Sequence record: SRR31156797_613
Direction: 5' to 3' (one strand)
DNA length: 64,000 nt
Below the pieces are notes generated by a model, which saw nothing but the letters and a program-made list of their open reading frames with translations, made no database searches and was not told where the DNA came from. The position numbers and the translations under genes are program-made. Shown here piece after piece: positions 1,229 to 1,438 of this stretch; the stretch's first letter is position 1; the number at the start of each line of letters is the position of its first letter.

Positions 1229-1278
1229 TTGTCTACCGCCTTTCAAAATTTATTTAAAGCATGTTTGCTTTAATGCAT

Positions 1279-1327
1279 AATAAAAGAGGTCTCAATCATG
1301 CTGTATAAAAGCATAATTAAGACCTCT
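1279..1327 (-). terminator. Intrinsic terminator inside the nifH 5' leader (attenuator)
   Basis: 18-bp stem AGAGGTCTTAATTATGCT / AGCATGATTGAGACCTCT with 2 G-U pairs that work only on the minus strand, followed by TTTATT. Confidence 0.8.
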
Positions 1328-1409
1328 ATGTCTGTAATTTTAGTAAAAATATTTATTTTTCAGGACAAGATATGCAAGAGCGTGATACCCATTCCTTCAA
1401 TATATGACG

Positions 1410-1438
1410 ATTATAATACATGTTTATCGATATTGCAA
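1410..1438 (-). promoter_or_regulatory. Sigma-A type promoter of the nif operon
   Basis: TTGCAA - 17 bp - TATAAT on the minus strand. Confidence 0.75.

Follow-up and report, generated by a model that had tools for sequence, protein, structure and literature searches.

We analysed the leader of the nitrogenase gene nifH in a 64,000-nucleotide (nt) stretch of sequence record SRR31156797_613 (the whole stretch is called the window below, and features lie on its minus strand unless stated otherwise). The leader carries an attenuator that consists of an intrinsic terminator and a small hairpin with a six-nt loop (a hexaloop) overlapping the 5′ arm of the terminator. Comparison with related genomes confirms that the element is real and that it is conserved in nifH leaders. 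We favour, with moderate confidence, the interpretation that it is an ANTAR-type, protein-dependent attenuator of the nitrogenase operon. A second hairpin of the kind found in described ANTAR sites was searched for and is absent. Therefore the element is a variant of ANTAR-type attenuators and not a plain member of the class.

The terminator and the overlapping hexaloop hairpin

The nifH gene (410..1228) encodes 272 amino acids from the ATG at 1228 (Pfam Fer4_NifH, E 1e-131). Its leader is predicted to be ∼175 nt long, running from a transcription start site near 1403 to this ATG. A preliminary description of the DNA had placed an 18-base-pair (bp) terminator at 1327-1285, working only in the direction of nifH. 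The stem-loop is present at 1285..1327, with 18 bp (six G-C and two G-U pairs among them), a 7-nt loop UUUAUAC and the tail UUUAUUAUG; a sequence scan called the U-rich tail as UUUAUUAU at 1277..1284. Stem and U-rich tail together are those of an intrinsic terminator. The predicted fold has −26 kcal/mol (z = −8.2), and none of 200 shuffled sequences was equally stable. On the plus strand the corresponding stem has two internal mismatches, folds at −19.5 kcal/mol and is not followed by a U run, and the terminator therefore works in the nifH direction, as had been proposed.

The same description had pointed to a small hairpin, AGAC-AUAGAG-GUCU, at 1333-1320, with A at loop position 1 (A1) and G at position 4 (G4), and this hairpin is found at exactly that place. 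It has the features of the hexaloop hairpins in ANTAR targets, namely a stem of at least 3 bp and a loop of six nt with A1 and G4. The AC...GU closing pairs of such targets are also present (A1331-U1322 and C1330-G1323, with G1326 as loop G4). The core hairpin has a predicted stability of −2.8 kcal/mol and can be lengthened by pairing of AAUUA (1339-1335) with UAAUU (1319-1315), C1334 being bulged, so that the entire antiterminator hairpin spans 1315..1339. The last four nt of the loop and the 3′ stem (1327-1320, or to 1315 in the extended form) are the first 8-13 nt of the terminator 5′ arm, and the two structures exclude each other. The 5′ stem of the hairpin, AGAC, repeats a short piece of the terminator 3′ arm, GAGAC, and both compete for GUCU. 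In folds of the growing transcript, the small hairpin forms at once, before the terminator 3′ arm, and extends to 1339-1315. It survives formation of the upper part of the terminator and is displaced only by the last part of the 3′ arm.

Conservation in related nifH leaders

Relatives were collected by a search of genome contigs with a NifH query. It matched 601 stretches; a relative is encoded in 587 of them, and the 80 best entered the comparison. Loci of Clostridia type are nearest; NifH of locus L001 is 94% identical to that of the window, and those of L002-L009 are 82-88% identical. For the window and the 80 loci, as much as 400 nt of the DNA preceding nifH was examined; less was available in five of the loci (5 nt in L009, <300 nt in L003, L012, L053 and L069).

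The layout of the window recurs at 7 of the 80 loci (L001, L002, L003, L004, L007, L022 and L066). Since L003 has it twice in tandem, there are nine instances including the window. In all nine the terminator is predicted to fold at −15 to −32 kcal/mol, a stability reached by none of 200 shuffles, and the loop and 3′ stem of the hexaloop hairpin are the first nucleotides of the terminator 5′ arm. The register is common to all instances (relative to the terminator start, the loop begins between 3 nt upstream and 4 nt downstream), and it is fixed although the terminator sequences are unrelated between most loci. An alignment of related leaders, which the preliminary description had suggested as a means of finding covariation, shows that the hairpin is conserved: 97% of the cells in the nine hairpins are paired (a value reached by 0 of 500 shuffles), and compensatory changes occur at three of the four pairs. 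The closing C-G pair does not vary; loop G4 is present in 9/9 and loop A1 in 8/9, L002 having G at this position.

Since the hairpins had been found by searching for them, the same detector was applied as a control to each terminator-like site of the window and of all loci, on both strands. Upstream of nifH, 8 of 16 terminators had an A..G.. hexaloop hairpin in register; among the remaining terminator-like sites the figure was 8 of 244 (Fisher p = 3e-7; p = 2e-6 when the window is left out). One of the eight sites found elsewhere is a full dual-hairpin site in L066.

The closest locus, L001, permits a comparison letter by letter. The hairpin and the terminator 5′ arm form an island of identity between the two leaders. 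The extension of the hairpin is kept in L001 with other letters (GGUUG/UGAUU versus AAUUA/UAAUU with the bulged C in the window), and pairing in the terminator is kept by changes on both arms, for example from A-U to G-C at the tenth pair. The block UUUUGAAAGGCGG at the ribosome-binding region is identical in L001.

The two hairpin-plus-terminator units of L003 are complete and stand in tandem within positions 1-200 of that locus, both with the arm sequence GGATAACGG. The contig starts with what appears to be the 3′ end of a third unit, GGATAACGG followed by seven T. Not all close NifH relatives have the attenuator: in L005 and L008 (Clostridium algifaecis and C. moutaii), with NifH 82-85% identical to that of the window, the nifH leader has neither a terminator nor a hexaloop hairpin. 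Apparent hairpins GGC-ACGGNN-GTT stand upstream of nifH at several proteobacterial and Bacteroidota loci. These were rejected and read instead as −24/−12 promoters of sigma-54.

Proposed mode of action and the second hairpin

Two studies of the eut system describe what is known of such sites. ANTAR targets were defined as two hexaloop hairpins, P1 and P2, with A1 and G4, P2 overlapping the terminator; the linkers of eut sites are 5-12 nt long, and the closing pairs are conserved, induction being lost when A27, C28, G35 and U36 were changed in a way that left pairing intact (Ramesh 2012). The EutV dimer contacts one hexaloop at a time, with G4 as the sole base-specific contact, and isolated P1 and P2 bind with an affinity equal to that of the dual motif (Walshe 2022). 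The minimal ANTAR binding unit was redefined accordingly as a single hexaloop, and the extent to which single-hexaloop sites are used was left open (Walshe 2022).

The preliminary description had reported only one A1/G4 hexaloop hairpin in the window leader, and this was borne out by a hairpin search and by a covariance model. A dual-hairpin model was dropped because MAFFT put gaps inside the P1 loops, and a single-hairpin model, R1, was built instead from 14 hairpins. Alignment of these 14 shows no variation at G12 and conservation of 90% or more in columns A4, C5 and T13. The top match of R1 in the window is the hairpin under study (18.4 bits), itself a member of the training set. The leader contains just one more A..G.. 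hexaloop "hairpin", UUG-AAGGAA-UGG. It was rejected as lying 55 nt away, with three wobble pairs in its stem and no counterpart in L001. Nothing further appeared when the loop was relaxed to G4 only, a search in which ∼0.6 such hairpins are expected by chance per 75 nt.

The same form is found in relatives. Among the nine instances six have a single hairpin and three are dual. In the leaders of L001, L002, L003 (both copies) and L007 no second R1 match was found at E up to 10; P1 of L004, for comparison, scores 14.9 bits. Two of the single-hairpin leaders are predicted to leave little room for a P1, with leader RNA of only ∼20-25 nt ahead of the hairpin: in L002 a scanned promoter TTGAAA-17-TAAATT with TG would give ∼20 nt of RNA before the hairpin, and in L007 a TATAAT that was read by eye and is not in the scan list would give ∼22 nt. 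L004, L022 and L066 have full dual-hexaloop ANTAR-type sites at the same place, and these sites tie the single hairpins to the ANTAR family. In L022 (Omnitrophica-labelled; 3875-3926) the first hexaloop hairpin overlaps the terminator 5′ arm and the second forms the terminator apex, an order that differs from P1-linker-P2-terminator. L066 has a further dual-hexaloop site with an overlapping terminator at 384-416, ∼800 nt upstream of nifH; it precedes a 174-amino-acid open reading frame (ORF) with weak matches to sigma-70 region 2 and GerE/LuxR.

We propose the following mode of action. The genes nifH-nifI1-nifI2 would be transcribed from a sigma-A-type promoter, and the leader would by default end at the terminator. 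The terminator is ∼20 kcal/mol more stable than the small hairpin, and termination is therefore the predicted default. When nitrogen is limiting, the activated form of an ANTAR-domain regulator, whose gene would lie elsewhere in the genome, would bind the hexaloop, recognizing it through G4 and the AC/GU closing pairs. The regulator would keep the bound hairpin in place for long enough that the base of the terminator cannot form, and RNA polymerase would then read into nifH. Read-through that depends on something to hold the small hairpin follows the logic of protein-dependent antitermination. It is not the logic of a riboswitch, since conservation does not extend to any aptamer-like structure. 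The preliminary description had left the choice between a non-canonical ANTAR site and an undescribed nitrogen-responsive RNA switch; a conserved attenuator with an ANTAR-type A1/G4 hairpin is what remains of it, whereas the RNA switch is not supported.

Four known systems resemble the proposed one. The eut leaders of Enterococcus faecalis (EutV/EutW) share with the window the A1/G4 hexaloop, the AC/GU closing pairs, the position of the 3′ half of the hairpin in the terminator 5′ arm, and default termination with protein-dependent read-through (here proposed). They differ in having P1, which the window lacks, and in controlling ethanolamine use rather than nitrogenase genes. The nifH leader of Geobacter sulfurreducens has a terminator with a conserved, overlapping element just upstream, to which GnfR binds when phosphorylated by GnfK, and loss of GnfR leads to premature termination at nifH (Ueki and Lovley 2010). 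In our own reading the reported site, CAGGCAANGGCGCC, can be drawn as an A1/G4 hexaloop hairpin. The Geobacter system uses a sigma-54 promoter and a GnfL/GnfM cascade, whereas the window has a sigma-A-type promoter and a low-G+C, Clostridia-like host. Table S2 of Ramesh 2012 gives predicted ANTAR elements upstream of nitrogenase/P-II operons in Desulfotomaculum, Moorella, Thermincola and Thermoanaerobacterium. Both the gene order, with P-II genes after nitrogenase subunits, and the kind of element are as in the window. That table has 16 Clostridium rows; none lists a nitrogenase subunit, and one, for C. beijerinckii, lists homocitrate synthase. The table was compiled with a dual-hairpin model, by which the one-hairpin leader of the window would probably be missed. 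In the nasF leader of Klebsiella oxytoca the ANTAR protein NasR likewise acts on hexaloop hairpins to override the terminator of a nitrogen-assimilation operon; it differs in sensing nitrate through a NIT domain and in using a two-hairpin motif. Finally, a study of C. thermocellum mentions nitR as an antiterminator of ammonia assimilation in a Clostridium, and also a REC-ANTAR gene beside GS-GOGAT genes.

ANTAR-type attenuation of nitrogenase genes is thus a known kind of system, and the mechanism is not new for nifH. The preliminary description was right in placing nitrogen genes of Firmicutes under the control of ANTAR proteins. In print this already reaches nitrogenase operons, ANTAR control of nifH being shown in Geobacter and predicted in other Firmicutes, so that the novelty is lower than was assumed there. 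Literature searches outside subscription journals found no description of a P1-less nifH attenuator. A term search of a 2026 review of nitrogenase regulation gave no occurrence of "ANTAR", "antiterminat" or "attenuat".

Several observations weigh against an ANTAR-type attenuator. In the window no A..G.. or ...G.. hexaloop hairpin above chance precedes the hairpin within 75 nt, and R1 finds nothing upstream of it above 5.3 bits; EutV antitermination required both hairpins and a short linker (Ramesh 2012, Walshe 2022). No ANTAR-domain protein (Pfam PF03861) was found among the 48 window ORFs scanned or among 16 nifH-flanking ORFs of L002, L004, L006, L007, L022 and L066. The transcription start site is a prediction, and promoter-like matches are common in A+T-rich DNA. 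The set of nine hairpins is small and partly non-independent, since L003 is represented by two copies and L001 is closely related to the window, and the alignment was chosen by hairpin scanning. A strict terminator scan detects the terminator of the window and misses the interrupted stems of L001, L002, L004 and L007, which were recognized by our own mismatch-tolerant scan and by folding.

Directly upstream of the dual-site leader of L004 lies a gene for a 1049-amino-acid hybrid histidine kinase (359-3508; PAS, HisKA, HATPase and two receiver stretches). It is a candidate sensor for an unseen ANTAR regulator.

The attenuator could also be operated by a trans-acting factor of another kind, such as a different protein that binds hairpins, or a small RNA complementary to the loop or to the terminator arm. 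The lack of an ANTAR gene in the window and in the scanned flanks would fit such a factor, as would the departure of the P1-less form from the tested ANTAR requirement. Nevertheless we think it unlikely. The six-nt loop, A1, G4 and the AC/GU pairs are exactly the features of ANTAR targets, and L004, L022 and L066 have full dual sites at the same place. Inspection by eye also found no conserved GGA in the loop, the motif of CsrA-type proteins, and no NAG repeats at the spacing used by HutP or TRAP.

A second alternative is that the window has an ordinary dual-hairpin ANTAR site whose P1 has degenerated. The sole candidate for such a recruitment hairpin is an A/U-only structure, AAAAA-UAAAUA-UUUUU (1345..1360), 11 nt before the core hairpin. 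This distance is within the 5-12 nt of the eut linkers, and L001 has a comparable A/U hairpin, AAAU-UGAAUA-AUUU, ∼14 nt before its own hexaloop hairpin. The candidate lacks G4, however, has a predicted stability of 0.0 kcal/mol and scores only 5.3 bits with R1 (1359-1346; E 1.4 in 251 nt). A run of A followed by a run of U is common in DNA of 34% G+C, and nothing comparable is present in L002, L003 or L007. We regard a degenerate P1 as distinctly improbable.

We give still less weight to a constitutive terminator, which would serve as a partial attenuator, as an insulator or as the end of a short leader RNA, the small hairpin having no regulatory role. The great strength of the terminator, the weakness of the antiterminator and the want of an identified regulator would be in keeping with it. 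It does not explain why the hairpin is kept in fixed register, with covariation and an invariant G4, across wholly different terminators. Moreover, the stretch from the terminator to the ATG contains no promoter-like site on the nifH strand, and nifH would therefore be silent if the 18-bp terminator were constitutive.

A metabolite riboswitch, responding for example to glutamine or 2-oxoglutarate and choosing between antiterminator and terminator, would be consistent with the mutually exclusive structures and with the fold of the whole leader, which is better than that of shuffled sequences (z = −4.7). The significance of this fold, however, comes from the terminator alone. From the transcript start to the hairpin, neither sequence nor structure is conserved in L001, and the window region 1403-1341 folds no better than shuffles. 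The competing structures noted in the preliminary description do not alter this picture. Its 5′ hairpin (1395-1363) exists, at 1362..1396, and is predicted to have −10.2 kcal/mol (z = −1.3), but 16 of 200 shuffles are as good and it is absent in L001, where the equivalent stretch is unstructured (−1.6 kcal/mol, z = +1.95); it is probably not functional. The alternative pairing of TCTTGTCCTG with CAGACATAGA (1370-1361 with 1334-1325) turned out to be a weak, interrupted duplex of −4.7 kcal/mol and was discarded. The short RNA predicted before the hairpin in L002 and L007 would also stand against an aptamer. Rfam 15 gave no match in the whole window at the gathering score, and at E up to 10 in 1100-1800 only noise of the microRNA/snoRNA type, far below gathering scores. 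The canonical dual site of L004, searched as a control, gave no Rfam match either, so this negative result does not bear on ANTAR targets. Altogether we consider a riboswitch very improbable.

Ribosome-mediated attenuation through a ten-codon leader ORF, MGITLLHILS (1392-1360), is scarcely credible: its AUG has an upstream AAGGA, but this abuts the AUG and is too close for a ribosome-binding site, the ORF has no run of nitrogen-related codons and ends ∼30 nt before the terminator, and L001 has neither the ORF nor an equivalent AUG.

We suggest tentatively that a single hexaloop without P1 is enough for regulated antitermination in vivo. The leaders of the window, L001, L002, L003 and L007 might then be a natural P1-less class, read by an ANTAR regulator in a mode unseen in EutV, or by some other hairpin-binding protein that responds to nitrogen. 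The occurrence of this form in five Clostridia-type genomes offers a direct handle on whether single hexaloops drive antitermination, and these leaders are natural candidates for the question on the use of single-hexaloop sites raised in Walshe 2022. One-hairpin leaders also explain why searches for dual hairpins would miss such sites. Nitrogenase is very costly, and how anaerobic Firmicutes switch on nif transcription is poorly described. The leader adds a clear case of control after initiation at nifH, backed by comparison with relatives.

Promoter region, operon and gene neighbourhood

The preliminary description had proposed a near-consensus sigma-A promoter at 1438-1410. The promoter TTGCAA-17-TATAAT is found there (1410..1438; −35 at 1438-1433, −10 at 1415-1410) and matches the consensus at 10 of 12 positions with a spacing of 17 nt. 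The match by itself is not above chance, as 4 kb contain 28 promoter-like sites versus 19.8 ± 5.1 in shuffles. L001 has TTGCAA-17-TATAAT at the same place, inside a 14-nt identical block. The −35 and part of the spacer form an identity island, TTGCAATATCGATA, and the −10 is also kept. In L001 the −35 lies within a perfect 12-bp palindrome, ATATTGCAATAT.

Upstream of the −35 two boxes are conserved in L001. The first, AAAATGCAGGA (1466..1476), is identical at 11/11 positions while the surrounding DNA has diverged, and it is a possible DNA site for a transcription factor. The second, ATATATTCA (1447..1455), is identical at 9/9 positions. A sequence similar to it, ATATATTGAA (1405-1396), follows the −10 at the predicted transcript start in both the window and L001, so that ATATATTCA and ATATATTGAA are near-repeats ∼50 bp apart that flank the promoter. 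The three boxes may be binding sites of a factor that acts on initiation, besides the attenuator.

Between the terminator and the ribosome-binding site is a third hairpin, UUAAAGCA-AACA-UGCUUUAA (1254..1273), with a predicted stability of −6.6 kcal/mol, not above shuffles. A hairpin of different sequence stands at the same place in L001 (465-481, called terminator-like by the scan) and in L003 (∼226-244). This third hairpin could be a weak second terminator or a 5′ stabiliser. As a second ANTAR hairpin it was rejected: R1 gives it 9.3 bits, but loop position 4 is C and it is located after the terminator. The Shine-Dalgarno region, read from the sequence, is AAAGGCGG at 1236..1243.

Downstream of nifH are a nifI1-type P-II gene (59..385; Pfam P-II, E 5e-21) and the start of a next gene (1..48, ATG at 48-46), probably nifI2, which continues off the edge of the window. 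Relatives carry an ORF of 127-130 amino acids at the place of the probable nifI2. The gene upstream of the leader is divergent, as had been noted earlier: an ORF at 1716-2642 on the plus strand has a weak alpha/beta-hydrolase match.

The window has 33.8% G+C, and the host is a low-G+C, Clostridia-like bacterium. A large plant-polysaccharide block at 3391-28269 contains glycoside hydrolase families 5, 95, 31, 3 and 42 together with sugar ABC transporter components and an AraC-type two-component system, and it points to a plant-fibre-degrading anaerobe that also fixes nitrogen. Farther along, two pairs of a BlaI-type repressor and a BlaR1-type (peptidase M56) sensor lie within 10 kb of each other (37538-40421 and 45988-49036). 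Between the two pairs are a gene for an ECF-type sigma factor (41664-42236) and a GntR/ABC transporter unit.

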